Source: Candidatus Eiseniibacteriota bacterium (GTDB lineage: Bacteria; Eisenbacteria; RBG-16-71-46; CAZAMP01). Taken from it: a DNA stretch of 64,000 bases. Below are positions 33,145 through 48,249 of this stretch, one piece after another. Location of the stretch: positions 1,280,001 through 1,344,000 of the forward strand of contig OZ245046.1 of NCBI GenBank assembly GCA_965224245.1, in the 5' to 3' direction. Numbering within the stretch: position 1 is the stretch's first letter; each line of letters starts with the position of its first letter. A program made the position numbers and the translations under genes. The notes beneath the pieces are model-generated. The model saw nothing but the letters and a program-made list of their open reading frames with translations. It did not search any database and was not told the DNA's origin.

Positions 33145-33192
33145 TCAGCCCTCGAAGTCGGCGAGCCTGCGTGGCGAGCTCAGACGGTACAT
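33145..33192 (-). CDS. Possible 15-aa peptide MYRLSSPRRLADFEG
   Basis: GAGGAG SD (33199-33204) 6 nt before ATG; lies downstream of the 28-aa ORF on the same strand. Confidence 0.25.
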   Translation of the reverse strand: MYRLSSPRRLADFEG

Positions 33193-33259
33193 TCCGCTCT
33201 CCTCGATCGCGGCCCGAGCGCACGCGGTGCGGTCGCACGCGGTGCGTTCACACCGGCGG

Positions 33260-33346
33260 TCAGCGACGCAGCCACCACAAGAGGTCGATCGACATCGCCA
33301 GGATGACCACGAGCGCCAGAGCGGGGACAGACGCGAAGACAAACAT
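33260..33346 (-). CDS. Small membrane peptide, 28 aa, MFVFASVPALALVVILAMSIDLLWWLRR
   Basis: AGGAGG SD at 33351-33356; single TM ending WWLRR; preceded by sigma28 and sigma54 promoter matches. Confidence 0.6.
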   Translation of the reverse strand: MFVFASVPALALVVILAMSIDLLWWLRR

Positions 33347-33436
33347 GTTCCCTCCTACGGCAAGGCCCAGAGGTCGCGTCACATCCACCCTCACCCCTCC
33401 TCACTTCGAGACGCGCGAGCGCGCCTCTACGTCCGT

Positions 33437-33465
33437 AAATCGGCTCGATCTCGCGAGTGCTTTAG
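33437..33465 (-). promoter_or_regulatory. Sigma28 (FliA/SigD-type) promoter
   Basis: Minus strand cTAAA-N16-GCCGATTT versus consensus TAAA-N15/16-GCCGATAA/AT. Confidence 0.75.
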
Positions 33466-33485
33466 GACGTGTCGACGGTGTGCAA

Positions 33486-33501
33486 TGCAAGGCACGGGCC
33501 A
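33486..33501 (-). promoter_or_regulatory. Sigma54 -24/-12 promoter
   Basis: Minus strand TGGCCCGTGCCTTGCA (GG-N10-GC). Confidence 0.65.
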
Positions 33502-33538
33502 GCGCCTGCTCGGGCCATTCGCATCCGCCGGCGTTCCA

Positions 33539-33805
33539 AAGGATTACGGTGTGACGAGAAGGACGGTGGGGTCGCGAGCGGCCGCTCGCTCCGGTCGGGA
33601 ACCGTCCATCGCGCCGGTTCATCCCGACCAGGAATGAGCCAGCGACGGGAATCGAACGTGTACCCGGGTACACGTTCGCCCATGAAGACCTCCACGTCCA
33701 CGCTTCCGGTTGAGCCCTGCGCACGGAGTGCGCGGCAAGCGCGATCGAGAAAACGGACCGGGAAGATGGAATGGACGTCCTCGGAAGGACCGTGTCGCGA
33801 CACAT
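33539..33805 (+). ncRNA. Candidate CsrA-sequestering (CsrB/RsmZ-like) structured RNA
   Basis: 12 GGA and 7 ANGGA in about 250 nt, several in hairpin loops; multiple perfect stems; no promoter or terminator identified. Confidence 0.4.
33653..33678. repeat. Perfect 26-bp palindrome CGAACGTGTACCCGGGTACACGTTCG
   Basis: Self reverse-complementary, read directly. Confidence 0.9.
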
Positions 33806-34189
33806 GAGCGCCGCAGTCGTCACCTTACCGTGGCGGATCGTTGCTCATCAGCACCGCTCCGATGAGATCCCCGTCGTCGTCGTGGACCTCTCGGCGCAGG
33901 AGACGCAGCACGTCCGGAAGCTCCTGGCCATCCACCGGCACGTCGCGGGCGGCGCTGCTGGTCCCGGCGTGCAGGCGCGCCGTGCACGAGCAAGTCGATG
34001 ACGTGACCTCGGTCGCAGACGGAGATCGAGCGATTCGCCAGTCGACCGACCGGATGGGTTCCCGTCTATCGTGGTGGTGATCTCGCCGAGCGTCCCCGGC
34101 GCCGTCCGTTGCCGCACGGCCCGCGAGTGGTACGTCGACGGCACGTGCCTCGATCGAGTGAGCGAGTCCGGTGCCGGGACGAGACGCCC

Positions 34190-36679
34190 TCAGGAGAGCT
34201 TGGCCACGATCAGCGTGACGTCGTCCTCGGCGTCCCCGTCGGCGAAGTCGGCCGCGGCGTCGACGATCAGCGTTCGGAGCTCGGACGCCGACCGATCTCG
34301 ATGGGCCTGCACGAGCGCCACCACCCGGTCCTCGCCGAACTCGAGATCGCCGTGGTGCGTCTCGATGAGCCCGTCGGTGTAGAACACGATGACCGTGCCC
34401 GGCTCGGGCTGGAGCGTCTCGTGACGATACGACGCGGCCCGGTCGATTCCGAGGAGCAGCCCGCCGGTGCTCATCTCCAGCACCTCGCCCTCGGGCGGCA
34501 CGACCAGCGGCGGGGGATGCCCCGCGTTCGCGAAGGTGGTGGCCAGCGTGTCGGGATCGATCGTGGCGCAGAAGAGCGAGACGAACTGACCGGGCTCGAT
34601 GCTCTCGCAGAGCCGATCGTTCACGCACGCCAGGAGCTCGCCCGGCGTATCGTGTCGATCGGACTCCGCGCGAAGCGTCGCATCCACCGACGCCATGATC
34701 AGCGCGGCGGGCACGCCGTGCCCGGACACGTCTCCCACCGCGATGCCGAGGCGCCCCCCGGGCAGCTCGGTGTAACGGTAGAAGTCGCCGCCGACCTCGG
34801 TGCACGTCCGCGTTCCGCCGGCGATCTCGATCCGATCCAGCCGGGGATCCCGGTCGGGGAGGAGCTTCTGCTGGATGTCGCGCGCGACCGCGAGCTCCCT
34901 CGCGATGCGCTCCTCGTCCACGCGGCGCGCGTGGGAGATCGCGTTGCGCATGCCGACCTCGGCCTGGCCGGCGATCGACTGCAACAGCTCGAGGTCCTCC
35001 AGTCCGTACGACTCGCCGCCACGCCGGCGTCCGAGCGCCAGGACCGCCAGCATCTCGCGACGTCGACCCAGGGGGACGAGCACGCCGCCGTGGAACACGT
35101 TGAGGATGCGCTCCTCGGCGTCGCCGAGCTCGCCGAAGGGGAGGCTCTCCTCGATGTCGGTGGAACGGAGCGGTCGCGACGCGGTCGTGACGGTGTCGAG
35201 AAGCCGGGCCGGAAGCGGCGGGAGATCCAGATCCTCCAGCGGAAGCCCCGAGGCGTATGCCATCCGGAACTCGCCGCCACGCTGGCTCGCGTCGTCGGGC
35301 CGGAGGAAGATCGCGGCCTCGCGAACGCGGAGCGTGCGCGAGAGCTTGTCCACGACCGAGGACAGGAGCCCCCCGAGGTCGAGGATGCTCGGCAGCTCCC
35401 GGCCGAGCTCGCGCAGCATGCGCCGCTCGTCGTAGCGATCCCGGAACAGCGTCCGGTCGACGAGCCGTTCGATCCGGTGGCGAAGCGGCGTGAACACGGC
35501 GGCCACCGTCACCAGCGACAGGACCATGATCCAGCGGTTGCGCTCGCCGGTGGCGTTCTCGAGCACCCGCCCGAACACGATGTACACCCCCGACGTGATC
35601 AGGAAGAGACACGCGGTCAGGAGCGAGAAGGCCGCGCTCCGCTTCACCACGATCTCGATGTCGAGCACGCGATGGCGCACGATCGCGTACGCGAAGCTCG
35701 CGGGCATCACCAGAAGTCCGACCACGGCGACGTTCACGTACGTCGACCAGGAGTTCGGCCACACCAGGTGCACCGCGGTGCCGAGGAGGAGCGGCGCGAC
35801 GCCGACGAGCGTCCCCACCAGGACCACCGTGTAGCGCCGCCGTTCGGCTCGCGAGCGCACGCCCACGTAGCCGACCACGAAGCTCACGAGTGCCAGCGCG
35901 GCATACACCACCAGCGACAGCCCCGCGAGCACGTTGACCGCCATCGTCGCCAGCACGACGCCGGGCGGATGCCAGAGCCGCGCCGTGAACACGTACGCCA
36001 CCACCGGCAGCGCGATCAGCGCCGGAACGTAGAGCCACCGGAGCACCGGGGGATGCGCGCGCACGACGCCCGAGAGTCGCGGGAACAGCAGGAAGAAGTG
36101 CAGGATCACCGGCGCCAGGAGGAGCGCACCCAGCGACCGGCACAGCGCGAAGACCAGCGGCGCCACCGGTGGCGACTCGGGTGCGATCGGCAGCAGGACG
36201 AGCGAGAACGCGCTGCAGAACGCGAAGAACAGCAGCGTCAGGCGCCCCTCGATGTGGAGCGCCGCGTAGAGTCCGATCAGCAGGAACCCGATGCCGGTCA
36301 CGAGGCGCGCCAGGCGGGAGAGCCGCTCGTGGGCGTGAATCGCGGTGGCGTCCACCGAGATCGGCAGCGGGCCGTCCGGCGTGATCAGATCGAGCCGCGG
36401 CGTGCGCCCGAGAGCGCCGGAGTAGAAGTAGTCGTTCAGGAACGGGACGAGCGCATCGATCGGCTGATCGTTCACCCCGACGATGCGCGCGCCGACCGGG
36501 ATCCCGGCCCGCTCGCCCGGGCCGTCCGCGTCCAGCGAGACGATCCGATCGCCCTGGAGCGTCACCCCGAAGTACGGCTGATCGAAGAGAGCCTCGCCGC
36601 TCGCCGCGTAGAGCACGATGAGGAAGAGCCCCCAGGCGATGGCCAGGCGTTTTCTCCGACCGGCGTGGCGCGCTCTCAT
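34190..36679 (-). CDS. Membrane PP2C/SpoIIE (RsbU-like) phosphatase with PDZ and GAF domains
   Basis: PDZ (DGPGERAGIPVGARIVGVND), multi-TM region, GAF, ARDIQQKLLP, EVGGDFY, GDVSGHG, NAGHPPP, YTDGL, DDVTL; start ATG36679 (ATG36733 possible). Confidence 0.9.
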   Translation of the reverse strand: MRARHAGRRKRLAIAWGLFLIVLYAASGEALFDQPYFGVTLQGDRIVSLDADGPGERAGIPVGARIVGVNDQPIDALVPFLNDYFYSGALGRTPRLDLITPDGPLPISVDATAIHAHERLSRLARLVTGIGFLLIGLYAALHIEGRLTLLFFAFCSAFSLVLLPIAPESPPVAPLVFALCRSLGALLLAPVILHFFLLFPRLSGVVRAHPPVLRWLYVPALIALPVVAYVFTARLWHPPGVVLATMAVNVLAGLSLVVYAALALVSFVVGYVGVRSRAERRRYTVVLVGTLVGVAPLLLGTAVHLVWPNSWSTYVNVAVVGLLVMPASFAYAIVRHRVLDIEIVVKRSAAFSLLTACLFLITSGVYIVFGRVLENATGERNRWIMVLSLVTVAAVFTPLRHRIERLVDRTLFRDRYDERRMLRELGRELPSILDLGGLLSSVVDKLSRTLRVREAAIFLRPDDASQRGGEFRMAYASGLPLEDLDLPPLPARLLDTVTTASRPLRSTDIEESLPFGELGDAEERILNVFHGGVLVPLGRRREMLAVLALGRRRGGESYGLEDLELLQSIAGQAEVGMRNAISHARRVDEERIARELAVARDIQQKLLPDRDPRLDRIEIAGGTRTCTEVGGDFYRYTELPGGRLGIAVGDVSGHGVPAALIMASVDATLRAESDRHDTPGELLACVNDRLCESIEPGQFVSLFCATIDPDTLATTFANAGHPPPLVVPPEGEVLEMSTGGLLLGIDRAASYRHETLQPEPGTVIVFYTDGLIETHHGDLEFGEDRVVALVQAHRDRSASELRTLIVDAAADFADGDAEDDVTLIVAKLS

Positions 36680-36920
36680 GGGTGCGGAGAGTCTCCCGTC
36701 TGGGAAGCGTGTCGCGGTCTCAGGCTCGCGCATCGTACCACGAGCAGCCGTGGGCCCCGGCGGTGGACAGGATCTGGCCACACCGGTCGACAACTGACCT
36801 CCGCGTGGCGATCGGGGCGTGGGCGCGAGCGGCGCCCCAGCACGCTGCGCAGATCGGTCGCCGTTGCCAGGTGCCGGCGGAGCGCCAGGCCGGCGATCCG
36901 GTCACCGGCTGGCGAACGAC

Positions 36921-36936
36921 TGGCACATCGATTGCA
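36921..36936 (+). promoter_or_regulatory. Sigma54 -24/-12 promoter upstream of flgN
   Basis: TGGCACATCGATTGCA, near-perfect consensus, 40 bp before ATG36977. Confidence 0.8.
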
Positions 36937-36976
36937 ATGTGCCGGGAGCTCCGAGACTCCGTCGTGAGGAGGCCGA

Positions 36977-37504
36977 ATGAAGTCGACGTTCCCGAGCATC
37001 GCGAGCGGGACGCGCGGACTCGCCGATCCGATCGGAATGCCCGACGGGCGAGACGCGACACCCCCGCCATCCGAGACGCTGGCCCGGCTGGAGGACCTCC
37101 TGTGGCGGGAGCTGGATCACTATCGCGAGCTCTGCGACGTGCTGGCGCACGAGACCGGGATGCTCGAGGCCGATCGGCCCGAGGCGCTCCCGCCCCTGTT
37201 CGAGGAAGAGACCCGGATTCTCGAGGATGCACGCGATCTTGCGCCCCAGCGGACGCAGGCGCTCACGGAGGTGTCGGCGGCGCTCGGTGCGGCGCGAGCC
37301 CTGACGCTCGTGGAGGTGGCCGAGCGTCTCGAGGGTGACGAGCGGGTTCGACTGGAGAAGCTGCGTACCGCCCTCGCCCACATCGTGGCGAGAGTCGATC
37401 GGATCAACCGGACCAACCTGCTGCTGATCCGCAACCGCATGAGCCTGGTCCCGGCGTCCATGCACGCGATCCTCGAGGAGGCACCGTCTCGAACGGTCGT
37501 GTGA
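36977..37504 (+). CDS. flgN: FlgN-family export chaperone-like protein
   Basis: GAGGAGG SD; helical pattern LEDLL..ELDHYRELCDVL..E, R......N..N..LI typical of FlgN; context. Confidence 0.7.
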   Translation: MKSTFPSIASGTRGLADPIGMPDGRDATPPPSETLARLEDLLWRELDHYRELCDVLAHETGMLEADRPEALPPLFEEETRILEDARDLAPQRTQALTEVSAALGAARALTLVEVAERLEGDERVRLEKLRTALAHIVARVDRINRTNLLLIRNRMSLVPASMHAILEEAPSRTVV

Positions 37505-37640
37505 GCCGGGGATCCGCCGTGAGCCGGGATGGCCGGATGCCGGTGCGCCCGCGTCGCCAGCCGCACCGACGCAGGGAGTGCTCCAGATGTCGGCCCGGAT
37601 GTCCGAGCTGTATCACAGGGCGGTGCCGATAGTCCGTCGC

Positions 37641-37657
37641 TCGGCCAGGATGGCCGA
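37641..37657 (+). promoter_or_regulatory. CsrA-type binding hairpin in fliW leader
   Basis: TCGGCCA-GGA-TGGCCGA, presenting CAGGATG at the apex, 22 nt before ATG. Confidence 0.6.
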
Positions 37658-37679
37658 TTGGTCCGGGAGGCCAAGGGAC

Positions 37680-38126
37680 ATGGAGATCCAGACGCGGTTG
37701 TTCGGAACGATCGAGGTCGGGAACGAACGCCTCATCACGTTTCCAGGAGGCCTCGTCGGCTTCGAGGCGTGCACGCGCTTCGTGCTCGTCGAGTCCGAGG
37801 AGCTCGAGCCCCTCAGATGGCTGCAGTCGGTGGACGTGCCTCACCTGGCGTTTCCGATGGCCGACCCCGGCTACTTCATCGACGACTACGAGGTGCGGAT
37901 CACCGGCGACGACGAGGACATCCTCGACGTCGACGAGGAGTGCGACGAGATCGTGACGCTGGTGATCGTGACCCTGCCCGACCGGACGCACCCGGTCCGC
38001 GGCAACCTTCGTGCACCGATCGTGATCAATCTGAGCAATCGCATCGGTCGGCAGGTCGTGCTCAGCGACGAGACCTACGGCTACTGCCAGTCGAGCCTGG
38101 CGGAAGCGGCGCGCGTCGAGAAGTAG
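37680..38126 (+). CDS. fliW: Flagellar assembly factor / CsrA antagonist FliW
   Basis: MEIQTRLFGTIEV..ITFPGGLVGFE, WLQS, LAF..DP, NLRAPIVIN, GRQVVL. Confidence 0.93.
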   Translation: MEIQTRLFGTIEVGNERLITFPGGLVGFEACTRFVLVESEELEPLRWLQSVDVPHLAFPMADPGYFIDDYEVRITGDDEDILDVDEECDEIVTLVIVTLPDRTHPVRGNLRAPIVINLSNRIGRQVVLSDETYGYCQSSLAEAARVEK

Positions 38127-38135
38127 GGGGAGAGC

Positions 38136-38387
38136 GTGCTGGTTCTGACGAGAAAGCCCGGCGAGAACATCCGGATCGGGTCCGACGTCGTGATCACCGT
38201 GCTCGGAGTGCGGTCCGGTCACGTGAAGATCGGGATACAGGCGCCTCGCGGCATCCCGGTTCATCGGGAAGAGGTATACGAGAAGATCGCCGAGACCAAT
38301 CGCGATGCGACGCGCCAGACGACCGACGATGCCGGAGAGGCCGCCCGGCGCGTTCGCTCGAAGCTGGAGCTCCCGCCCGAGGACTAG
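38136..38387 (+). CDS. csrA: Carbon storage regulator CsrA (FliW-binding type with C-terminal extension)
   Basis: MLVLTRKPGE.I.IG, VKIGIQAP, VHREEVY; R44 and N55 present. Confidence 0.97.
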   Translation: MLVLTRKPGENIRIGSDVVITVLGVRSGHVKIGIQAPRGIPVHREEVYEKIAETNRDATRQTTDDAGEAARRVRSKLELPPED

Positions 38388-38464: not shown

Positions 38465-38493
38465 CTAAAGACCGGGCCACGTGCTGACGAAGA
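38465..38493 (+). promoter_or_regulatory. Putative sigma28 promoter of flagellin-like gene
   Basis: cTAAA-N16-GACGAAGA; same CTAAAG -35 and spacing as the 33437-33465 promoter; -10 is 5/8. Confidence 0.55.
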
Positions 38494-38554: not shown

Positions 38555-39310
38555 ATGACGTGGGCGGCATCCCGGATCCGACCGGACGACGGCCGGCGGC
38601 CGTCGCCCGACCTCGATGGCGACGTCGTCCTGCGCCAGCTCCGACTCGCCGAGTGCCGCCGACGCAACGGCCCCGTGGAGGACGTCGCCCGGAGATCCAT
38701 CGCGCCGGAGGCGAAACCGGTGGCGATCTCCGACGTCCCGCGGCGTCCGGGGCATTCCGTGAACACGCGACACGTGTGCGACGGCCTCGACGAGGCCAGA
38801 GACCTAATGGCGGTCGGGGAAGCCGCGCTCCGTCGGATCGACGACATCCTGACCGAGATCAGCGTGAAGATCACACGCACGGCATCTGGCGTGACCGAGG
38901 TCGGCGAACGCGAGGCCGCCTCTGCGCAGCTGACCGCGATGGTCGCCGAGATCGACGCGATCTCCGCCGAGACGAGATTCGACGGGGTCGAGCTGTTGAC
39001 CGGTGGTACGGTGCTGGTGTTCGCGGTGCGAGGACGGACGATCGTCACGTATGCGACGAACGCGTTCGACGCGGCGAGCCTCGGCATCCGGATCGGGTCG
39101 CGCACGAACCGCGATGCGATCGATCCGGCCAGCGACCCGACGTGTCTGAACGAGGTCGAGACGGCCCGCGTGCGCGTTCACGAGGCCATGGCCTCGCTCC
39201 GCTCCGTGATCGATCGCATCGCCATCGAGGAGCGTCTGATCCCGACGACCGACGACGAGTCCCGGGTTGCGTTCAGCCGCGGTGAGGATGCGGCCCCGCT
39301 CGCGGGGTAG
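38555..39310 (+). CDS. Degenerate flagellin-like protein retaining D1 helices but lacking recognisable D0 ends
   Basis: MAVGEAALRRIDDIL..ASG....EREA....L..MVAEIDAISAETRFDGVELLTG aligns by eye to flagellin ND1; ASLRSVIDRI matches LGAVQNRL; ACGGAGG SD; follows fliW-csrA. Confidence 0.8.
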   Translation: MTWAASRIRPDDGRRPSPDLDGDVVLRQLRLAECRRRNGPVEDVARRSIAPEAKPVAISDVPRRPGHSVNTRHVCDGLDEARDLMAVGEAALRRIDDILTEISVKITRTASGVTEVGEREAASAQLTAMVAEIDAISAETRFDGVELLTGGTVLVFAVRGRTIVTYATNAFDAASLGIRIGSRTNRDAIDPASDPTCLNEVETARVRVHEAMASLRSVIDRIAIEERLIPTTDDESRVAFSRGEDAAPLAG

Positions 39311-39611: not shown

Positions 39612-39827
39612 GTGAGCACCGAGCACGACACGGCGTCCGGCGACGAGCTTCGGGTGGTGCCCGGCGGCGCGCCGCTCCCGGAGTCCGAGGAGAACCGATC
39701 GGACGAGGATGGTGTCCGGGCGCGCAAGGTCGCCGAGGCGCGGCTGAAGATCATGAACGCGTACTATTTGCGCGAGGACGTTCGACGAGAGCTCGCCGAG
39801 CGGCTGATCCTGGCGCTGGGCAGCTAG
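39612..39827 (+). CDS. flgM: FlgM-like anti-sigma28 factor
   Basis: GGAGG SD; disordered N-terminus plus VRARKVAEARLKIMNAYY...ELAERLI matching the FlgM C-terminal pattern. Confidence 0.65.
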   Translation: MSTEHDTASGDELRVVPGGAPLPESEENRSDEDGVRARKVAEARLKIMNAYYLREDVRRELAERLILALGS

Positions 39828-39985: not shown

Positions 39986-41608
39986 GTGACGGGCTCGGTG
40001 AGCACGTCCGAGAGTGGTCCGTCGTTCCGGGACCGTCGCTCCCCATCCGCAGCCCCGCGCCGCGAGCCGCCGTCGCGGCTGGCGCTGTGCCGCGAGCTTC
40101 TCGTCGGCCTCCACGGTGCGAGCGGCTTCGTCCTCCTCACGTCCCGCGACACCCGCCGCCATCGGGTGTTCGATCACCTCGGCGTCACCCCCTCGGACGC
40201 CGACCGCATCGCGCGAGCGCTCGACGGCTCGGACGTCGTGGCACGCTGGCACCGCGATCGCTGGCCCGAGCCCGACGTCCTCGACGCGGGCGACGTGCTG
40301 ATGACCGACCCGGAGTCGCTCGTGTCACCGGGGAGCGTCGTGCCCCGCCTCGCGCTGCCGCTGGTCGCGGACGGCGAGGGCGTCGGCGTGCTCGTGTGGG
40401 AGTCGGACGTGCCCCCGATCGGATCGCCGGCGCGCCTGTCGGCGCTCCTCGCGGGGGCCGTCGTGGATGCGCGGCACGCCGCCGCCCTCCACACCGACAA
40501 CGAGCTCGCCCGCTCGCTCTTGCGCGAGGTGTCGGTGGGTCTGATCGCGATCGATCCCGTGGGACGCGTGACGTATCTGAACGCGGCCGGCGAGCGCATT
40601 CTGGGCGTGGCCGCGGGAGAGGCCGTCGGGGCCGATTCGCTGCGCGTGTTCCGCACGCTCGTCGACGGTGAGAACGTCCTGTTGGACGGTCTCGAGGCGG
40701 ACCTCCCGGGGATGGAGGTCTGGCTCCGGCGGGGCGACGGTCGCGAGATGCCGGTGAACCTCGAGATCTCCCCGATCCGCGACAGTAGCGGGGAGACGCT
40801 CGGCGCGGTGGGCACGTTCCAGGACTTCTCCGAGATGCGGAGCATGCAGGAGCGCCTCCGGCACCGCGATCGCCTGGCCACGATCGGGGAGCTCGCCGCC
40901 GGCATCGCGCACGAGATCGGAAACCCGCTGACCGGCATCCGGGGCTGCGCGCAGGTGCTGGGTCGGCGATTACCCGAGGGCGACGGGTCGCACGACCTCA
41001 TCTCGGCCATCCTGGAGGAGGTCGACCGCCTCGGTCGACTCTCCAAGCAGATCCGGCACTACGTGCGGCCGCGTCCTCCGGAGATGGCGCGCGGAGACGT
41101 GAGCACCGCCGTCGAGCGCGTGCTGACGATCGTCGAGCCGCGCCTGGACGAGCTGGGGATCTCGGTGCACTGGTCCCGACCCACGCTGCCCGAGATCTAC
41201 TTCGACCCGGACCAGATGCAGCAGGTGATCCACAATCTCGTCCAGAACGCGGTGGACGCGATGGCGGACGGGGGCGGACGGCTGGAGATCGGCGCGAAGC
41301 TCGTCACCCGCTCGGTGTCGGCCCCCCGCCGGGGGCGGCGGGCCACCGATCGCACGGCCGACGCCCCGCGACAGGCCGAGCGGGAGTACGTGCGGATCAC
41401 GGTATCCGACACGGGGCAGGGCATTCCGGCCGACGTCGTTGAGCGCGTCTTCAATCCGTTCTTCACCACGAAGTCCACCGGGCTGGGCCTGGGCCTCAGC
41501 ATCAGCCAGACCGTGGTGACCGAGCACGCCGGGTTCCTGTCGGTCGTGAGTCAGGCCGCGAAAGGGACGACGTTCACGCTGGATCTTCCGGTCGATAGGA
41601 GAGCGTAG
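39986..41608 (+). CDS. Cytoplasmic GAF-like/PAS sensor histidine kinase (NtrB/AtoS-like)
   Basis: PAS (GLIAIDPVGRVTYLNAAG), H-box AHEIGNPL, N-box NLVQNA, DTGQGI, FNPFFTTK, GLGLGL; no TM. Confidence 0.92.
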   Translation: MTGSVSTSESGPSFRDRRSPSAAPRREPPSRLALCRELLVGLHGASGFVLLTSRDTRRHRVFDHLGVTPSDADRIARALDGSDVVARWHRDRWPEPDVLDAGDVLMTDPESLVSPGSVVPRLALPLVADGEGVGVLVWESDVPPIGSPARLSALLAGAVVDARHAAALHTDNELARSLLREVSVGLIAIDPVGRVTYLNAAGERILGVAAGEAVGADSLRVFRTLVDGENVLLDGLEADLPGMEVWLRRGDGREMPVNLEISPIRDSSGETLGAVGTFQDFSEMRSMQERLRHRDRLATIGELAAGIAHEIGNPLTGIRGCAQVLGRRLPEGDGSHDLISAILEEVDRLGRLSKQIRHYVRPRPPEMARGDVSTAVERVLTIVEPRLDELGISVHWSRPTLPEIYFDPDQMQQVIHNLVQNAVDAMADGGGRLEIGAKLVTRSVSAPRRGRRATDRTADAPRQAEREYVRITVSDTGQGIPADVVERVFNPFFTTKSTGLGLGLSISQTVVTEHAGFLSVVSQAAKGTTFTLDLPVDRRA

Positions 41609-43074
41609 TGACACCCTCGTTCGATCCGTCTCGCTTCTCGATTCTCATCGTCGACGACGAGAAGAACATCCGCTTCTCGCTGACCGAGCGGTTCAAGGAC
41701 GAGTATGCCGCCGTGTACGCCGTCGCCAGCGGACACGAGGCGCTCGCGCTCCTGGAGAACGAGCCGATCGACGTGGTGCTCCTGGATCAGAAGCTCAAGG
41801 AGTCCGGTGAGCACGGGCTCGACGTGCTGGCGGAGATCAAGGCGCGTCACGAGCACGTGGTCGTCATCATCCTGACCGCGTTCGGGGAGTTCGGGCAGGC
41901 CATGCAGGCGGCCCGTCTCGGTTGCTACGAGTACCTCGCGAAGCCCCCCGACTTCGATCACCTGGGTCTGATCATGCGAAACGGGCTCGTCGCGGCCGAG
42001 CTCCAGCGGGAGGTCGCGCGGCTTCGTCAGTCCCAGCGCCGCCAGTACAAGGTCGAGCTGATTCAGGGCGCGGACTCCCCCATGAAGGACGTGCTCACGC
42101 TGACGCAGCGCGTGGCCCGCAGCTCGTCGATCGTGCTGATCCTCGGCGAGACCGGGGTGGGCAAGGAGCTGATCGCCCGGACCGTGCACTACCACAGCCC
42201 CCGATCTCACGGCCCCTTCGTCGAGGTGAACTGCAGCTCGATCCCCGAGACGCTGATCGAGTCGGAGCTGTTCGGTCACGAGAAGGGGGCGTTCACCGAT
42301 GCACGGCGCTCCAAGCCGGGTCTCTTCGAGGTGGCCGCCGGGGGCACGCTCTTCCTGGACGAGATCGGCGAGCTGCGTCTTCCGGTCCAGGCCAAGCTCC
42401 TCAGGGTCCTGGAGAACAAGACGTTCCGCCGGGTCGGCGGAACCGAGGACCGGACCGCCGACGTGCGGGTGGTCTGCGCGACGCATCGGAATCTGCGCGA
42501 GATGGTCGATGCCGAGGAGTTCCGCGAGGACCTGTTCTACCGGCTGTCCGCGATCGACATCCCGGTGCCGCCGCTGCGCGAGCGGGTGTCCGACATCCCG
42601 AACCTGGTCAAGCACTTCACCGATCTGTTCAACTCCGAGTTTCACCTGCGCGTGTCCGAGATCGCGCCGGACGCGATGGAGTGTCTGACGCGACACGCGT
42701 GGCCCGGAAACGTGCGCGAGCTCCGCAACGTGATCGAGCGCGTGATGCTGACCCTCGACGGGGACGTGATCACGCGAGACGATCTGCCCGACGCCGTGCG
42801 CGGCGCCGCACGGCACGAGCCTCCCGGACTCGCCGACCCGCTGGAGGGCGGCGGGCGCGACGCTCTCGCGACCTCGGACGGTGTCCCGACCCTCGCTCAG
42901 CTCGAGCGCTGGGGCATCGAGCGCGCGATGCGGGCGACCGGCGACAACAAGACGCGGGCGGCGGAGCTGCTGGGGATCTCCCGTCAGACCCTCCGGATGA
43001 AGCTCCGCGACTTCGACCGCGACGACGCAAAGGAGCGCGGCGCCGACGTCGGCGCCGACGCGCCGACGGCCTGA
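41608..43074 (+). CDS. Sigma54-dependent response regulator (REC-AAA+-Fis HTH)
   Basis: IVDDE, LLDQ, KP; GETGVGKE, ESELFGHEKGAFTDA, FLDEIG, FREDLFYRL, WPGNVREL, NKTRAAELLGISR. Confidence 0.95.
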   Translation: MTPSFDPSRFSILIVDDEKNIRFSLTERFKDEYAAVYAVASGHEALALLENEPIDVVLLDQKLKESGEHGLDVLAEIKARHEHVVVIILTAFGEFGQAMQAARLGCYEYLAKPPDFDHLGLIMRNGLVAAELQREVARLRQSQRRQYKVELIQGADSPMKDVLTLTQRVARSSSIVLILGETGVGKELIARTVHYHSPRSHGPFVEVNCSSIPETLIESELFGHEKGAFTDARRSKPGLFEVAAGGTLFLDEIGELRLPVQAKLLRVLENKTFRRVGGTEDRTADVRVVCATHRNLREMVDAEEFREDLFYRLSAIDIPVPPLRERVSDIPNLVKHFTDLFNSEFHLRVSEIAPDAMECLTRHAWPGNVRELRNVIERVMLTLDGDVITRDDLPDAVRGAARHEPPGLADPLEGGGRDALATSDGVPTLAQLERWGIERAMRATGDNKTRAAELLGISRQTLRMKLRDFDRDDAKERGADVGADAPTA

Positions 43075-43110: not shown

Positions 43111-43126
43111 TGGCATACCGCTTGCT
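43111..43126 (+). promoter_or_regulatory. Sigma54 -24/-12 promoter upstream of pseudo-cheB/AMIN operon
   Basis: TGGCATACCGCTTGCT (GG-N10-GC). Confidence 0.7.
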
Positions 43127-43172: not shown

Positions 43173-43185
43173 TAAGGAATTGATT
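43173..43185 (-). promoter_or_regulatory. IHF-type binding site
   Basis: Minus strand AATCAATTCCTTA matches WATCAANNNNTTR in an AT-rich patch. Confidence 0.5.
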
Positions 43186-43296
43186 GTAAATAGGTTAGGT
43201 AGGGAAGGGCCGCCGGTGCCGCGGGTGTGACGCTCGTGGTGGCGGCTAGTTCCGGTGCGCTGGTGCGGCGGGCCGGACGGAGACGTGGGTGTGTTC

Positions 43297-44061
43297 ATGC
43301 CGGTGAACGACCTCGATACCCTGATCGTGGACGCGGACGACGAGCGAGCGGCCCGCCTCGTGGCGGCCCTCGGAGGGCGCGAGGGCGCGCCGGTGGTCGG
43401 TCAGGCGCGCGACGGGGGGACCGCGCTGCGGATGCTCGATCAGATCCGGGTCGGGGTCGTTCTGCTGGCGACGCGACTTCCCGAGCTCGACGGCCTCACC
43501 ACGCTTCGCCTTCTTCGACGGCGGAGCGGCGTTCCGGTGGTGGTGCTCGCGGATCCGGGCGACGTCGAGGCGGTGCTGGATGCGCTGGCCATGGGCGCGA
43601 ACGGCTACGTCGTCGCCTGCGATCTCGTCGAGGCGTCGTCGCCGGCCGGCGTGCTCCGCGCGATCGTGGAGCCGGCCGAGCCCTCGATCGCGGAGCGGGA
43701 CGAAATCGTGATCGTCAGCGTGAATCGGGGCGGATCCCCGCTGATTGCCGAGACGCTGTGCGGGCTCTCCGGTTCCCGCGACAAGGCGCTGTACCTGCTC
43801 GTCGACGGTCCGGAGTGGATCGTCGAGCCACTGGCCCGGCGTCTGCATCGGAGCACGCCGTGGCGATGCCTTCCCGCCGTCGATGGGGATCACCTCGTGC
43901 CGGGCCACGCGCTGGTCGCGAGCACGGCGCAGGGGCTTCGCGCGGCACCACGCGGGCGCCGGCTCAGGCTGTCCGCGGGCGTCGGCTGGTCGTGTCTCGG
44001 AGACGCGCTGGCGGAGCTGACCCACCCGATGACTCCCAAACCCATGCGAGGTGCAGCGTGA
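43297..44061 (+). CDS. CheB-like pseudo-receiver/pseudo-methylesterase
   Basis: REC fold (VVGQARDG, LPELDG) with phospho-Asp replaced by Ala; CheB-like C-terminus NRGG, VDGP, LARRL, DGDHLVPGHALVA; start uncertain (43285-43297). Confidence 0.65.
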   Translation: MPVNDLDTLIVDADDERAARLVAALGGREGAPVVGQARDGGTALRMLDQIRVGVVLLATRLPELDGLTTLRLLRRRSGVPVVVLADPGDVEAVLDALAMGANGYVVACDLVEASSPAGVLRAIVEPAEPSIAERDEIVIVSVNRGGSPLIAETLCGLSGSRDKALYLLVDGPEWIVEPLARRLHRSTPWRCLPAVDGDHLVPGHALVASTAQGLRAAPRGRRLRLSAGVGWSCLGDALAELTHPMTPKPMRGAA

Positions 44062-45683
44062 ACCCCAGGTCGCACGCGGAGCGCGCCCGGACGATCGGTG
44101 CGGCGTGCACGGTGGTCGCGGTCGCGATACTGGCGACGGCGCTCTCGCTCCCTTCCACCCAGGCGTCGGGCGGCGACGGGCGTCCGGGCGAGCGTCTCAC
44201 CGGCGTGCGCGTGGTCGAGCGGGCCACCAGCATCGCGGTCGAGCTGCCGATCACGTCGCTTCCGCGCATGATGGTGCTGGCCCGTCCCCATCGTCTGGTC
44301 ATCGACGTTCCGGTGGCATCGGGGTTGCCGGGTGCGCCCGAGCTGACGCGCTGGCGCGTGGACCGGTGGGGGGTGCGCGAGATCCGGACGAGTCAGTTCT
44401 CCCGGAATGCGGACGAGACGATCACGCGTCTCGTCCTCGAGATGGATCACCGCCCGAGGTGGGAGCTCGAGGGCGGGCCGCTCGGCTACGCCGTGCTCGT
44501 GGCCGCCGAGCCGGACGGCGAAGGTCCCCTCGTGTTCGGGGTCCTGCCGGCATTGCCGGAGTTCGCCGCGCCCGGGCCGCCCGACGAGCTGCCCGGAGAC
44601 GCCGCCTCGGAGGCCGCGGCCGGCGTCGGACGAACCGCCGGCGGCGAACGGTCAGACACCGCCGACGGGATCGACGCCACGGACGCAACCGATACCACCG
44701 GAGAACACACCGTCGACGCGGCGCCGGAGTCGGCCTTCCAGCACCGGCCCCTCTCGGACCGGCGCGCCGCCGAGCTGATCGCCGACGCGGAGGTGAAGCT
44801 GGCCGCGGCGAGCTATCGGGAGGGCCTCGAGAGCCTGGCTCGCGTGTTCACGAGCCATCCGAGCAGCCGCCATGTCGTTCGCGCGCGCACACTGGCGGCC
44901 GAGTTCGCCTGCGCGCTCCACTTCGGCGACGAGGCGGTGTCGCATCTCCTCGCTGCGTTCGCCGACACGACCGGGGCGGTCAGGTCGGCGCACGGGGCCG
45001 TCGTCGCCGCCGCGCAGGCGACGGGAGTCGTGGAGCCGATCGACTCGGTCCTGGCGCGCGGGGCGCGCCTGCTCGCGACGTGCCCGCTTCGCCCGGAGTC
45101 CTGGCACGCGCTGTCCGAGCTGCACACGATGGCCTCGCGGCGGCTCGGCCCGTCGCATCCGGCGGTCACCGACGTCGCATCGACTCTCGGGATCGCGCTC
45201 GCCGAGGCGGGGCAGTCGCTGGACCGGGCGCGCGAGCTCCTGATCCGGGGACTCGAGCGGACCTCCGATCCGGCACGGACGGCCGAGCTCCATCGCGGTC
45301 TCGGGCTCTGTCACGAGCATGCCGACGATCGACTGGCGGCGGCGGCGGAGCTCCTGATCGCCGCCCGGCTCACGGTGGCAAACGATCGGGACGCATCGCT
45401 GGCGCTACGGCTTCGTGCCGCGGACAACTACTACCGCGCCGACGCGCTCGAGCCCGCTACCGAGCAGTACCGGCTCGTGTCCGACCTCGAGGAGGTGGCC
45501 GACGAGCTGCGCTGCTGGGCGTTGTTTCAGCTGGGCAACTGCTACTACCGCGCCCGGCGGTTCGACCTCGCGGCCGAGACGTTCACCGCGGTCGAGGGTG
45601 CGTTTCCGAGCTCGTTCTGGGCCGACCAGGCCCGAACGCGACTCGCCGCCATCCGACGGACCGGCGTGACCATCGGGTCGTAG
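44058..45683 (+). CDS. Exported AMIN-domain and TPR protein
   Basis: Signal peptide, PHRLVIDVP, VREIRTSQFS, TRLVLEM, C-terminal TPR (ALFQLGNCYY..FPSSFWADQAR). Confidence 0.75.
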   Translation: MNPRSHAERARTIGAACTVVAVAILATALSLPSTQASGGDGRPGERLTGVRVVERATSIAVELPITSLPRMMVLARPHRLVIDVPVASGLPGAPELTRWRVDRWGVREIRTSQFSRNADETITRLVLEMDHRPRWELEGGPLGYAVLVAAEPDGEGPLVFGVLPALPEFAAPGPPDELPGDAASEAAAGVGRTAGGERSDTADGIDATDATDTTGEHTVDAAPESAFQHRPLSDRRAAELIADAEVKLAAASYREGLESLARVFTSHPSSRHVVRARTLAAEFACALHFGDEAVSHLLAAFADTTGAVRSAHGAVVAAAQATGVVEPIDSVLARGARLLATCPLRPESWHALSELHTMASRRLGPSHPAVTDVASTLGIALAEAGQSLDRARELLIRGLERTSDPARTAELHRGLGLCHEHADDRLAAAAELLIAARLTVANDRDASLALRLRAADNYYRADALEPATEQYRLVSDLEEVADELRCWALFQLGNCYYRARRFDLAAETFTAVEGAFPSSFWADQARTRLAAIRRTGVTIGS

Positions 45684-45979
45684 TCCGTCCGCGACCGCGC
45701 CGGGAGTTCCGGCTCTCGCCTCGTTGATCACCAGATTCTCCGTTTCGGGTGGGGTGCGGCCCCACGGCCCGCCGCCGATGGTGTGTCGGCCGACCGGTGG
45801 TCACGTCTTCGCCGGCGCGGCCGCACCGTCCGCACGAGACGGTTAGGAACTTGCCGCCACCTGCCGAGGAGGCCGCCGGCGATGCGACGGCCCGCCGGCG
45901 CCCCGGCCCACCGATCCCACGCCGTGACCCGGGGGGCGGCTGCCCGGCGAGTCAGCATGTGAAGCGACAACCTGCATCA

Positions 45980-45992
45980 CATCAATGAATTA
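45980..45992 (+). promoter_or_regulatory. IHF-type binding site upstream of fliA-operon sigma54 promoter
   Basis: cATCAATGAATTA; flank resembles the reverse complement of the 43173-43197 site. Confidence 0.4.
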
Positions 45993-46086
45993 CATGGAAC
46001 GTCGCGAAACTGCTCGAATGGGATGCGGCGTCGATGGGAGGCCGGGGAACTCGGTCGAGAGCGGTCAGCCCGGCAGACGCAGGCCG

Positions 46087-46102
46087 TGGCCCGCAAGTTG
46101 CT
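46087..46102 (+). promoter_or_regulatory. Sigma54 -24/-12 promoter upstream of small membrane gene and fliA
   Basis: TGGCCCGCAAGTTGCT (GG-N10-GC). Confidence 0.7.
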
Positions 46103-46161
46103 CTTTACGCGGGTCCCCGTCGAGGGGTGCTCCCGATCCCGATCCGAAGGAGACGACGCAC

Positions 46162-46446
46162 GTGAACACGACCAACGCCGCCGGCTCGAAGCTCACCGGC
46201 CCTCTCGTCGCACTCGTCGTCACATCGGTCGGTCACTCCAACGGTATCGGCACGCTGGCCTCGATCTTTCGTGCCGTCGCCACTGGCGTGATCGCGGCGG
46301 TTCTGGTGCACCTCGGGGGATTGGCCGTCGTCGCGACACGGCGCTCGCCGCGTGGCCTCGACGGCACGCGTGCGCGTGGCACACGGACGAACGGCACGCG
46401 CGGGCACGACGACGGCGCGCGCGAAGCGGTCGGCAGGGCAGCCTGA
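46162..46446 (+). CDS. Small membrane protein, 94 aa
   Basis: AAGGAG SD before GTG46162; two hydrophobic segments and basic tail; 19 bp before fliA. Confidence 0.55.
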   Translation: MNTTNAAGSKLTGPLVALVVTSVGHSNGIGTLASIFRAVATGVIAAVLVHLGGLAVVATRRSPRGLDGTRARGTRTNGTRGHDDGAREAVGRAA

Positions 46447-46465
46447 GGAACGGGGGAGAGCGTTC

Positions 46466-47245
46466 ATGACAGCGCGGAAAGTGGCAAACGCACAGGTCGA
46501 GGAAGCACCGGCGAGGCCGGTTCGTGAGATGTCGAAGGAAGAAGCCCTCAAGAAGTACGCGCCCCTGGTCAAGTACGTCGTGGATCGGATCGCGACCGGG
46601 CTGCCCAAGACGATCGAGCGAGACGACCTGGTCAACACCGCGGTAATCGGGCTGTTCGATGCGATGGAGAAGTTCGACGAGGGGCGCGGCACCAAGTTCG
46701 AGACGTACGCGGTCTGGCGCATTCGCGGCGCGGTGCTCGACGAGCTCCGGTCGCTCGACTGGGTCTCGCGCAGCGTGCGCAAGAAGGCAAAGGAGGTCGA
46801 GCAGGCGGCCCGCCGCCTGGACCAGCGCCTGGGCCGCGCGGCCAGTGACCACGAGGTGGCCGACGAGCTGAACCTGTCGGCGGGCGACTTCAACCGGCTG
46901 CTGGAGGAGGTGCGAGGCTCGATGCTGCTCTCGCTCGACCAGTCCTTCAGCGTGGACGACGACCACGACGTGTCCGGTCTCGCCGACATGATCGAGGACG
47001 ACAAGGCAGCCGACGTCCTCGGCGACATCGAGCTGGAGCAGGCCCGCGACATCCTCCTCGACGCGATCAACAAGACGAGCGACCAGGAGAAGCTCGTGAT
47101 CGCCCTCTACTACTACGAGGAGATGACGCTCAAGGAGATCGGCGAGGCACTTCAGATCTCCGAGTCGCGGGTATCGCAGATCCACACCAAGGCCATCGTC
47201 CGACTGAAGAACCGGATGCGACGGGTCATGAAGGAGCAGGCGTAG
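46466..47245 (+). CDS. fliA: RNA polymerase sigma28 factor FliA/WhiG/SigD
   Basis: YAPLVKYV, KFETYAVWRIRGAVLDELRSLDWVSRSVR, LYYYEEMTLKEIG, SESRVSQIH. Confidence 0.96.
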   Translation: MTARKVANAQVEEAPARPVREMSKEEALKKYAPLVKYVVDRIATGLPKTIERDDLVNTAVIGLFDAMEKFDEGRGTKFETYAVWRIRGAVLDELRSLDWVSRSVRKKAKEVEQAARRLDQRLGRAASDHEVADELNLSAGDFNRLLEEVRGSMLLSLDQSFSVDDDHDVSGLADMIEDDKAADVLGDIELEQARDILLDAINKTSDQEKLVIALYYYEEMTLKEIGEALQISESRVSQIHTKAIVRLKNRMRRVMKEQA

Positions 47246-47280
47246 CTCCGGCGTTCCGAGCCGGCAGCCCCGCGAGAGGA

Positions 47281-48249
47281 GTGAGCATGAGCGGCCTTTC
47301 CAGCGTCCGGACCGAGTCGACGTCGAGGACGGGGATGCGGACGAGAGACACCGACTCGACGTCGTGGCGACGCCGCAGGGCGCGGATCGCGCTCGTGCCG
47401 GGCGTGCGGGCGACACTGGCGACCGCGTTCGCGGTGCTCTCCACGATCGGGGCTCCGAAGGCCGCATCCGAGACCGTGCCGGCCGGTGTTTCGAGCGTCG
47501 ACGCCGATGCCCCGCTGGCCACCATTCTCGATGGACGTCTGGCCGCCGGTCGCGAGCGCGCGGTGGCGGCCCAGGAGACACGGTTGGAGGTGTATGCCGA
47601 GGACCTGGCCCGGCGTGCCGCGTCTGACGGGTACATGCAGCCCGTCGGTCGGATCGTCACGCCGAGCGAGATCGGAGGCGGGATCCTCGTGGGGTCGGCC
47701 GTCACGGTGCTCCTTCTGCTGGTCGCGCTCCGCGCCCTCGCGGGGCGCGGGTGGGGGACGAGCATGCCGCGTCGTGAGCGCGACGAGATGATCGCGCTGG
47801 AGGAGCGTGTCCTGGCGGGCCTTCGCGAAATCGAGACTCGGCTGGACCGACTCGTCGAGCGCATGGCCGAGGCGCGCCCGAGCGCGGCTCAGAGCTCACC
47901 GCGCGACGGGATCGTCGCGGACGACGACGGGGACGAGCCGGTACCCGAGGCGGCGCCGGCCGGGTCGCCGAGCGACGGCGGCTATTCCGACCGACTCGGC
48001 ATGCTGACTCTCGACGCGCGCCGCGCCCGGAGGGCGCACGTGATCGAGAACGCACCGGCGGGGCACGGGTCTCCTGGGGACGGCCCCACACCGGGATCGC
48101 GTCGTCGCGGTGGCTCCGAGAGCGACCGCCGCCGGGTGGTGATGTCGATGCTGGAACGTGGCGTGTCGCCGGAGGAGATCGGTCGGCGAACGAGCCTCGG
48201 CCCGGCCGAGGTCCGGTTCATCATGAAGCTGGCCGGCTCGCGCGGATGA
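47281..48249 (+). CDS. Membrane-anchored protein with C-terminal HTH-like motif (SwrB/DUF2802-like)
   Basis: TM (GSAVTVLLLLVAL), coiled coil, disordered linker, MLERGVSPEEIGRRTSLGPAEVRFIMKL; directly after fliA; start uncertain. Confidence 0.6.
   Translation: MSMSGLSSVRTESTSRTGMRTRDTDSTSWRRRRARIALVPGVRATLATAFAVLSTIGAPKAASETVPAGVSSVDADAPLATILDGRLAAGRERAVAAQETRLEVYAEDLARRAASDGYMQPVGRIVTPSEIGGGILVGSAVTVLLLLVALRALAGRGWGTSMPRRERDEMIALEERVLAGLREIETRLDRLVERMAEARPSAAQSSPRDGIVADDDGDEPVPEAAPAGSPSDGGYSDRLGMLTLDARRARRAHVIENAPAGHGSPGDGPTPGSRRRGGSESDRRRVVMSMLERGVSPEEIGRRTSLGPAEVRFIMKLAGSRG

Follow-up and report, generated by a model that had tools for sequence, protein, structure and literature searches.

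A window of 64,000 nucleotides from the Eisenbacteria genome G000 (contig C1, positions 1280001-1344000) carries an island of flagellar regulatory genes in a genome of 6.94 Mb in which neither structural genes of the flagellum (rod, hook, ring, export, switch, stator) nor an intact flagellin gene were found. The island comprises 12 genes, all on the + strand between 36.9 and 48.3 kb of the window. We consider it probable that the ancestor of G000 was flagellated, with a single supercluster in which regulators were interleaved among structural operons, and that the structural blocks were then deleted, leaving a regulatory backbone kept under selection plus recent leftovers. The island can be divided into two layers. 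The backbone is made up of csrA, flgM, a PAS histidine kinase, a sigma54-dependent regulator, a receiver (REC) protein and fliA, with a PP2C phosphatase, a GGDEF cyclase and a hybrid kinase as flanks, and in the families examined it is present with or without a flagellum; in G000 it appears to experience purifying selection as strong as in a flagellated sister genome. The other genes, namely flgN, a flagellin reduced to its D1 part, an AMIN-TPR gene, a small membrane open reading frame (ORF) and a DUF6115-like gene, appear to be leftovers of a recent loss, because the older aflagellate lineages examined lack them and the flagellin is demonstrably degenerating.

Gene content of the island

G000 is a metagenome-assembled genome (MAG) of about 70% GC in 27 contigs, with an estimated completeness of 97.4%, and the window lies on its 6.45-Mb contig. 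Lists of ORFs carry much noise at such a GC content; genes were therefore called from codon-position GC and GC frame plots and then with Pfam and NCBIfam. Codon-position GC signatures were intact across the island genes, which are the following, with identities given relative to the flagellated sister genome G001.

36977..37504, + strand: flgN (PF05130, 61.2 bits against a cut-off of 30.5, E = 2e-16; 45% identical to G001 FlgN; a chaperone of FlgK/FlgL, neither of which is present)
37680..38126, + strand: fliW (PF02623, 114.7 bits over profile positions 1-117 of 122, with a cut-off of 25)
38136..38387, + strand: csrA (PF02599, 87.7 bits; NF002469, 83.9 against 73; TIGR00202, 79.3 against 70.1)
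38555..39310, + strand: flagellin remnant of 251 amino acids (Flagellin_N positions 67-136 of 139, 31 bits; without Flagellin_C)
39612..39827, + strand: flgM-like ORF of 71 amino acids (by synteny with a G001 ORF)
39986..41608, + strand: PAS histidine kinase, start uncertain (Pfam PAS, HisKA and HATPase_c)
41608..43074, + strand: NtrC-type sigma54-dependent response regulator (Response_reg, Sigma54_activat at 231 bits, HTH_8)
43255..44061, + strand: REC protein with a partial CheB-methylesterase-like domain (Response_reg, 54 bits)
44058..45683, + strand: AMIN-TPR protein, anchored by a signal or transmembrane segment (AMIN, 20.7 bits against a cut-off of 20.5, plus TPR)
46162..46446, + strand: membrane ORF of 94 amino acids (G001 ortholog between flhF and fliA, tblastn 35%, E = 7e-9)
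46466..47245, + strand: fliA, sigma28 of the FliA/WhiG family (TIGR02479, 259 bits against a cut-off of 189.6; sigma70 regions 2, 3 and 4)
47287..48249, + strand: membrane protein with a C-terminal DUF6115/DUF2802-like segment (DUF2802, 17.2 bits, and DUF6115, 13.1 bits, both subthreshold)

FliW retains all 10 columns that are invariant in an alignment of 15 sequences from the class. FliA is about 81% identical to its G001 counterpart (80.8-81.6%), and the WhiG equivalog, its best NCBIfam row, scores 273.6 bits against a cut-off of 343. The flgM-like ORF shares 49% identity with the syntenic G001 ORF in a local tblastn alignment and 42% in a full alignment. The FlgM family PF04316 does not match the G000 copy, while five of eight syntenic orthologs match it, the best at 6e-7; the copy of G013 scores 22.1 bits, under the cut-off of 25. 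A profile of the flgM-like proteins searched against PDB gave a FlgM chain, 9wsf_B, as its top match (E = 0.018). Profiles and synteny thus confirm the inventory that a preliminary description of this DNA had read from the sequence (flgN, fliW, csrA, a flagellin without D0, the kinase, the sigma54 regulator and fliA), and the spacing of about 175 bp that it gave between flgN and fliW measures 175 bp.

The same description had taken three further genes, as a "pseudoCheB," an AMIN/TPR protein and a "swrB-like" protein, for degenerate derivatives. All three turned out to be ancestral members, present in the flagellar cluster of G001. In the G000 REC protein, CheB_methylest (PF01339) reaches 18.9 bits, below the cut-off of 24, and covers profile positions 3-80 of 174 only; its orthologs lie above the cut-off in G001 (24.7 bits), G013 (35.3) and G051 (38.0) and below it in G067 (20.0). 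The AMIN-TPR protein is 33% identical to its G001 ortholog, and the DUF6115-like protein is 27% identical to an ortholog that scores 29.4 bits for DUF6115 against a cut-off of 27. The 94-amino-acid ORF matches no Pfam or NCBIfam family.

Absence of structural genes and quality of the assembly

Family searches of the whole G000 genome returned no match to FHIPEP, Flg_bb_rod, FliP, YscJ_FliF, Flagellin_C (PF00700), FliG_C or MotB_plug, whereas the controls of each search gave matches in 4 of the 14 named genomes. The sole match to Flagellin_N was the island's own flagellin-like gene. When 47 proteins of the G001 cluster were compared with the whole genome by tblastn, 29 had no match, including FlhA/B, FliPQR, FliFGMNL, FlgBCEFGHIAKL, FliDSJK and FlaG; 13 matched in the island only, and 5 matched generic domains elsewhere (SRP GTPase, Ig-like, ATP synthase, GT2/TPR and SLT). 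The stator genes, which lie outside the cluster in G001, are also gone. The island had initially been described as a set of regulators without structural genes, lacking flgK and flgL in particular; the profile search and tblastn, both extended to the whole genome, bear this out.

That flagellar genes were missed by assembly or binning, or that the junctions are chimeric, would be conceivable for a MAG in 27 contigs at the completeness given above, but it is very improbable. The window lies on the 6.45-Mb contig, and the other 26 contigs, about 0.49 Mb in total, are without matches. Short-read contigs from two runs cover window positions 33000-42172 (X1) or 33000-42294 (X2) and about 42705-49000. 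They show no difference from the window sequence and bridge all deletion junctions; the junctions are hence not an artefact of long-read assembly, with the proviso that X1 and X2 represent one sample, possibly the source sample, and are not independent. A degenerate flagellin and orphan chaperones are, moreover, what a real loss is expected to leave.

Two irregularities were seen in the public reads. Contig depth is about 10x higher at window positions 42078-42700, in the AAA+ sigma54-interaction domain of the regulator, where the short-read contigs break; this probably reflects cross-mapping from many paralogs and from other organisms rather than a feature of the locus. An extra C at window position 37547, in the flgN-fliW spacer, occurs in one 3.1x contig of a third run (X3), where either an error or strain variation could explain it.

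Comparison with a flagellated sister genome

G001 is the only other genome of the same family; it is 4.4 Mb long, has 63% GC, and is flagellated. Its cluster of about 60 kb lies on one contig. The left part reads flgF-G-A-H-I-J, flgN, flgK, flgL, fliW, csrA and a GT2-TPR glycosyltransferase gene; the middle part reads two flagellins, fliS, fliD, flaG, an ORF, the flgM-like ORF, the kinase, the regulator, the REC/CheB-like gene and the AMIN-TPR gene; and the right part reads flgB, flgC, fliF through flhA, flhF, the small ORF, fliA, an ORF and the DUF6115 gene. The cluster is flanked as in G000, by the PP2C phosphatase on one side and the GGDEF cyclase and hybrid kinase on the other. In G000 these flanks are as follows.

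34190..36793, - strand: PDZ-GAF-SpoIIE (PP2C) phosphatase, divergent left flank (Pfam SpoIIE, 170 bits, and GAF)
48373..49677, + strand: GAF-GGDEF cyclase, right flank (Pfam)
49816..51597, + strand: REC-GAF hybrid kinase, right flank (Pfam)

The gene order of G000 is that of G001 minus every structural block, so that the synteny comparison proposed earlier finds the two collinear with the structural blocks excised. Since the same order lies inside the complete G001 supercluster, G000 must have lost its structural genes by at least five separate deletions: flgF-J; flgK-L; the glycosyltransferase; fliS-fliD-flaG; and some 20 kb from flgB to flhF. The interleaved supercluster is common to flagellated members of families f15, f16 and f18, and its order is conserved in G020, G058 and G084. 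G000 and G001 thereby provide a natural before-and-after pair for a system of about 50 genes: G001 documents the parts once present, and G000 separates the dispensable parts (structural genes and the flagellin D0) from those retained.

Relative rates of evolution

Since G000 and G001 proteins are 27-81% identical, synonymous sites were taken as saturated, and a relative-rate test was used instead. Lineage-specific amino acid changes were counted in Tajima's manner for G000 versus G001 with three flagellated outgroups. The counts (G000/G001) were 21/13, 15/13 and 10/11 for FliW; 5/6, 4/6 and 5/5 for CsrA; 21/17, 28/25 and 17/13 for the kinase; 43/29, 47/33 and 31/45 for the response regulator; and 7/8, 8/11 and 7/8 for FliA. 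For these five proteins every chi2 was below 3.84 and thus nonsignificant: none of them is accelerated in G000 relative to flagellated G001. The flanking controls (PP2C, GGDEF and hybrid kinase) were likewise nonsignificant, save the GGDEF cyclase against outgroup G058 (24/40, chi2 4.0), where G001 was the faster. The flagellin, in contrast, accumulated 80-87 changes in G000 against 6-17 in G001 (chi2 41-66), a rate 5-10 times higher. The AMIN-TPR protein showed a borderline, mild excess, with 58/41 (chi2 2.9) and, on a short alignment, 12/3. For the regulators, simple decay is ruled out, because they show no excess of changes while the flagellin gained about 85 extra ones. Judged by these counts, their retention under selection appears to be a real case.

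The flagellin remnant

The remnant retains the ancestral start codon, its Shine-Dalgarno sequence (SD), which is overlapped by GGA motifs as read from the sequence, and a sigma28-like promoter. It ends about 38 residues early, without the C-terminal D0 helix. Its frame is open over 251 codons, and the three indels that set it apart from functional flagellins all preserve the frame. Decay is uneven along the protein. Among positions invariant in eight functional Eisenbacteria flagellins, the remnant keeps 5/16 in the N-terminal D0 segment (ND0), 4/14 in the first N-terminal D1 segment (ND1a, which also has an 11-amino-acid insertion), 15/20 in the second (ND1b), 4/9 in the middle, 6/15 in the C-terminal D1 (CD1) and 2/17 in the C-terminal D0 (CD0), where 14 are deleted. 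AlphaFold2 gave a mean predicted local distance difference test score of 60.8, with order at about residues 76-230 (the D1 core) and low confidence at 1-22, 38-75 and 232-251. The remnant is 36-39% identical to the flagellins of its own family, whereas those are 55-64% identical across families. What is characteristic of a filament-forming flagellin is wanting, in that Flagellin_N is incomplete in its D0-N segment and the genome contains no Flagellin_C.

For B. subtilis, protection of flagellin by FliW has been mapped to residues 11-34, 50-72 and 240-260, the N-terminal 72 residues alone being enough for binding (PMC6070490). By sequence comparison, it is mostly in these FliW-binding parts that the remnant has degenerated. 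A word-indexed search of 5.8 billion clustered proteins for related truncated proteins of 138-440 amino acids returned, at E<=1e-10, only the remnant itself, and Flagellin_N was found in none of five other FliW-bearing aflagellate genomes, so that no remnant exists there. Because the FliW-protected segments are degenerate and neither search yielded a counterpart, the remnant is most likely a relic; the uneven decay and the in-frame indels hint at some residual constraint.

Distribution and architecture of the backbone

The class set comprises 206 Eisenbacteria genomes, G000 included. FliA/WhiG scored over the cut-off in 191 of them, CsrA was found in 179, FlhA scored over the cut-off in 67, and FliW was found in 47. 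The preliminary description knew of no described system that also retains FliW, CsrA and a cytoplasmic flagellin remnant. As for FliA and CsrA, members of this class as a rule have them without flagella, and G000 is not special in this respect. These counts also caution against inferring motility from fliA, csrA, fliW or flgM in MAGs.

Of the 47 genomes with FliW, 15 are without FlhA (in 10 cases with a completeness of 90% or more): G000; G013, G051 and G053 of family f13; G065, G067 and G069 of f16; and 8 of the 10 genomes of f17, a family in which FlhA is found in 0/10. One f17 genome (G083) is unpublished; without it the counts are 14/46, 9 at least 90% complete, and 7/9 for f17. Family f9 has FlhA in 26/89 genomes and CsrA in 83/89. 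Searches of G013, G051, G053, G067 and G078 gave the rod domain in 0/5 and Flagellin_N in 0/5, and G013, G067 and G078 had no match to the MotB plug.

The backbone was read directly in G013, G051, G053, G067, G092, G009, G107, G103, G078, G050 and G052. In G013, G051, G053 and G067 the locus runs PP2C, fliW, csrA, (flgM, PilZ), kinase, regulator, REC/CheB-like gene, a MinD/ParA (FlhG/FleN-like) ATPase gene, fliA, GGDEF and hybrid kinase. The backbone recurs, without fliW, in three FlhA-negative f9 genomes (G092, G009 and G107), in an f9 genome with FlhA elsewhere (G103) and in f17 (G078). In the f17 loci fetched around fliW (G074, G076, G077 and G078), a separate fliW-csrA pair stands behind a sigma54 promoter; in G077 and G078, where neighboring ORFs were read, it lies near rpoD. 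Flagellated members of f13 (G050 and G052) also have the compact backbone. Its core of csrA, flgM, kinase, regulator, REC gene and fliA, with PP2C and GGDEF flanks, is found in every Eisenbacteria family with a locus examined. The PP2C ortholog takes the same position in G001, G013, G051, G067, G092, G009, G107, G103, G078, G050 and G052, and the GGDEF cyclase and hybrid kinase form the right flank in every lineage whose fetched locus extends past fliA. No tblastn match to flgN was found in the stripped loci of G013, G051, G053 and G067, nor to AMIN-TPR in G013, G051 and G067; between the REC gene and fliA, the latter three have the MinD/ParA ATPase instead (Pfam on the largest ORFs).

Three observations were made in passing. 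In f13, a PilZ protein (PF07238, 39 bits in the G051 copy) lies between flgM and the kinase in flagellated and aflagellate genomes alike (L023 8447-9226, -; L022 3678-4448, -; L123 11839-12612, -; L124 9967-10674, +). The flagellated f9 genome G103 has two FliA/WhiG-type sigma factors over the cut-off (C70:10405-11067 and C12:74652-75326), one adjoining FlhA and the other in a csrA...fliA backbone on another contig, an arrangement that suggests divided roles for paralogous sigma28 factors. In the seven-contig f13 genome G050, FlhA is found in two overlapping pieces (C3:883027-884992; profile positions 1-404 and 393-655), either through a long-read frameshift error or as an flhA pseudogene early in loss.

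Promoters and regulon scans

Candidate promoters in the island are listed below. A scan of G000 with the sigma54 pattern gave 120 matches genome-wide, with about 1.1 expected per 64 kb.

36921..36936, + strand: sigma54-type promoter TGGCAC-N5-TTGCA, 41 nt upstream of flgN
43111..43126, + strand: sigma54-type promoter TGGCAT-N5-TTGCT, upstream of the REC gene
46087..46102, + strand: sigma54-type promoter TGGCCC-N5-TTGCT, upstream of the small ORF and fliA (TGGCGC-N5-TTGCA in G001)
37625..37632, + strand: sigma28-type −10 element GCCGATAG, 48 nt upstream of fliW, without a good −35 element, read from sequence
38465..38493, + strand: sigma28-like promoter CTAAAGAC...GACGAAGA of the flagellin remnant (CTAAAGAC...GTCGATGA for fla2 of G001)

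The three sigma54 sites are homologous in position to those of G001, in keeping with the earlier statement that these promoters are intact. The site at 36921 corresponds to the G001 promoter ahead of flgF, read as GACTGGCACACCCGTTGCT, and a sigma54-type site occupies the position before the REC gene in G001, G013, G051, G053 and G067. About 100 bp upstream of fliW, a sigma54 site is present in 4/4 f17 loci. Just upstream of csrA, T[CT]AAG-N14/15-GCCGAT[AC] was read by eye in 5/5 backbone loci; it appears to be a sigma28-type promoter with a clade-specific −35 element.

Genome-wide scans for sigma28 sites in G000 stayed at chance. With the pattern TAAA-N15-17-[GC][CT]CGA[TA][AG]A and three less strict versions of it, 4, 6, 3 and 10 matches were obtained against 6-18 in local shuffles, and the clade motif T[CT]AAG-N13-16-GCCGATA gave 3 against 1-4 by chance. 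The preliminary description had held that the switches were rewired to a nonflagellar program and had proposed a scan of the TAAA-N16-GCCGAT type to define the regulon; neither this type of pattern nor the clade motif lends that proposal support.

The three clade-motif matches (C1:4505313-4505338, -; C1:2390744-2390769, -; C11:55539-55565, -) look intergenic and lie just upstream of ORFs; the one on C11 precedes genes adjoining a serine recombinase, and three matches equal the chance expectation. The leader of the f17 fliW-csrA pair (L019, about 9870-9980; L026, about 1445-1552) is GGA rich and contains ATGGAAGGCGCCCGCCCGGTCGG, which by eye resembles a segment of both G001 flagellin 5' leaders in L014, ATGGA..GCC(C)GGTCG. 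Elements of the ATGGAAGGCGCCCGCCCGGTCGG type may be a shared CsrA-binding element, hence CsrA autoregulation.

Proposed working of the locus and alternative explanations

In the working that we propose, the kinase and its regulator would activate the sigma54 promoters ahead of flgN-fliW-csrA, the REC operon and fliA. FliA, checked by FlgM, would drive sigma28-type promoters, including that of csrA in the backbone loci examined, and would also drive flgM, closing a feedback loop. CsrA would act posttranscriptionally on translation, and FliW, as its protein antagonist, would set the level of free CsrA. With no export apparatus, the release of FliA from FlgM and the control of FliW would have to follow an export-independent route, for instance, proteolysis or expression level. 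In the nonflagellated L. oakridgensis, FlgM is functional and apparently degraded rather than exported (PMC5655016). The constant association with PP2C, GGDEF and hybrid kinase genes, and with PilZ in f13, suggests an output tied to lifestyle control of the cyclic di-GMP type. A more far-reaching version, possible yet rather doubtful, is that the Eisenbacteria locus of csrA, flgM, sigma54 two-component system, REC, FlhG and fliA constitutes a flagellum-independent lifestyle switch working with PP2C and cyclic di-GMP enzymes; in the families that have it, FliW would receive a nonflagellin input, both switches would be free of secretion, and G000 would represent a transition state in which the D1-only flagellin possibly still feeds in.

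Had the flagellum been lost recently and the whole island been disappearing, its frames would be open only because high-GC frames slowly lose their stop-free status. The degenerating flagellin fits this, as do the mild excess of changes in AMIN-TPR (58/41 and 12/3) and the older aflagellate loci examined, which give no tblastn match to flgN, AMIN-TPR, the small ORF or the DUF6115-like gene. We nevertheless regard such simple decay as quite improbable, since FliW, CsrA, kinase, regulator and FliA are unaccelerated despite the roughly 85 extra flagellin changes, the codon-position GC signatures are intact, and regulators persist in many aflagellate Eisenbacteria, as in f17 (FlhA 0/10, FliW 8/10) and f9 (FlhA 26/89, CsrA 83/89). 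At the opposite end, the remnant could be a dedicated cytoplasmic ligand of FliW, so that the flagellin/FliW/CsrA switch cycles without export, for example by turnover of the remnant, and runs a new program together with FlgM/FliA. Its preserved start codon, SD with overlapping GGA motifs and sigma28-like promoter, its open 251-codon frame with all three indels in frame, the well-kept ND1b (15/20) and the predicted D1 core would agree with a ligand. This account is nonetheless unlikely, and the working FliW partner that the preliminary description saw in the remnant receives little encouragement: the protein has 80-87 lineage-specific changes against 6-17 in the G001 flagellins and stands at 36-39% identity to its own family against 55-64% across families, the segments protected by FliW are degenerate (9/30 invariant positions kept in ND0 and ND1a together, with the 11-amino-acid insertion, and 6/15 in CD1), 5/5 other FliW-bearing aflagellate genomes have no remnant, and no related truncated protein emerged from the 5.8 billion clustered proteins.

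Loss of the structural genes from a flagellated ancestor, with a selected backbone and recent leftovers, remains the account that we favor, and several points weigh against it. No sigma28 regulon can be defined in G000, so that a nonflagellar output is inferred only from conservation, and no RNA run is listed as carrying positions 36900-39900. The rate test involves one sister genome and amino acid counts and detects acceleration rather than function; FlgN, the FlgM-like protein, the REC/CheB-like protein and the DUF6115-like protein had no tblastn outgroup match at 1e-6 and fall outside it. Taken alone, the flgM-like ORF of G000 matches no Pfam family. All compared genomes are MAGs, and absence in relatives means family searches combined with completeness estimates of 90-100%. 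Finally, because flagellated f13 genomes are compact too, G000 and G067 (compared with G058) are the only genomes for which excision in situ out of an interleaved supercluster is shown.

Relation to known systems

Sigma28 factors have been co-opted outside motility in Streptomyces (WhiG) and Chlamydia. G000 resembles these cases in keeping a FliA/WhiG-family sigma factor without flagella; it differs in that descent from a flagellar system can be read directly from a sister genome, and in having an FlgM-like anti-sigma factor. In Vibrio and Pseudomonas, flagellar genes follow a sigma54-to-sigma28 hierarchy with FlrB/FlrC (FleS/FleR), FlhF/FlhG and FliA. The kinase with its NtrC-type regulator, the sigma54 promoters at flagellar operons and fliA, and the MinD-like ATPase gene by fliA in most lineages recall this hierarchy, whereas the only visible remaining targets in G000 are regulators.

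The closest precedent is Legionella, a genus in which L. longbeachae retains fleR/fleS. Nonflagellated Legionella keep mainly regulatory flagellar genes, and FliA and FlgM are functional there; L. oakridgensis, L. longbeachae and related clades keep fliA and flgM, and L. londiniensis keeps fleQ/fleN as well (PMC5655016). Here, too, structural genes are gone and regulators kept, sigma28 and its anti-sigma factor must work without export, and several Eisenbacteria keep the sigma54 two-component pair and a MinD-type FleN/FlhG-like ATPase. Unlike Legionella, the present case concerns a different phylum, FliW is kept in 15 aflagellate genomes, there is one conserved locus with PP2C and GGDEF flanks, G000 also keeps a flagellin remnant and flgN, and everything is known from genomes alone. 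With the Hag-FliW-CsrA partner switch of B. subtilis (PMC6070490, PMC6529632), G000 shares the order fliW-csrA-flagellin, clear FliW and CsrA family members and GGA motifs at the flagellin SD. In contrast to B. subtilis, it has no flagellin export apparatus, its flagellin lacks the C-terminal D0 and is degenerate in the N-terminal FliW-binding region, and the five other aflagellate Eisenbacteria examined have no flagellin at all.

Matches of the FliA type were reported in 41% of nonmotile genomes (PMC12199754), in a paper in whose text a term search gave 0 mentions of FliW or CsrA. By a machine-learning prediction, repression of B. subtilis hag is to be expected from few CsrAs of Eisenbacteria (PMC13443453). 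Our literature search, supplementary tables not covered, turned up no account of FliW-CsrA retention in aflagellate lineages, of flagellar regulation in Eisenbacteria or of the present locus. That flagellar regulators can outlast the flagellum is already known from Legionella (PMC5655016); the retention of FliW-CsrA and the Eisenbacteria locus appear to be the new part. To our knowledge, FliW is known only as a link between flagellin export and CsrA. Its presence beside csrA, unaccelerated, in 15 aflagellate genomes implies a second input or role for FliW, and the locus further implies an export-independent control of FlgM/FliA, which bears on flagellar gene regulation. As the phylum is uncultivated, follow-up is limited to heterologous or metatranscriptomic work.

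Minor observations around the island

The preliminary description had placed the island at 33145..48249. This holds from 36.9 kb onward; positions 33145-36900 contain the PP2C phosphatase gene on the - strand and about 1.1 kb without a clear gene. A search of positions 31000-50000 against Rfam at E<=1 gave 0 matches, so that no known CsrA-sponging RNA family was found there. In the 1.1 kb between a phosphodiesterase gene and the PP2C gene, a very hydrophobic ORF of 28 amino acids with a strong SD and no family assignment lies at 33260-33346 (-), and a sigma54-like site, TGGCCC-N5-TTGCA, is found about 140 nt upstream of it, at 33486-33501 (-).

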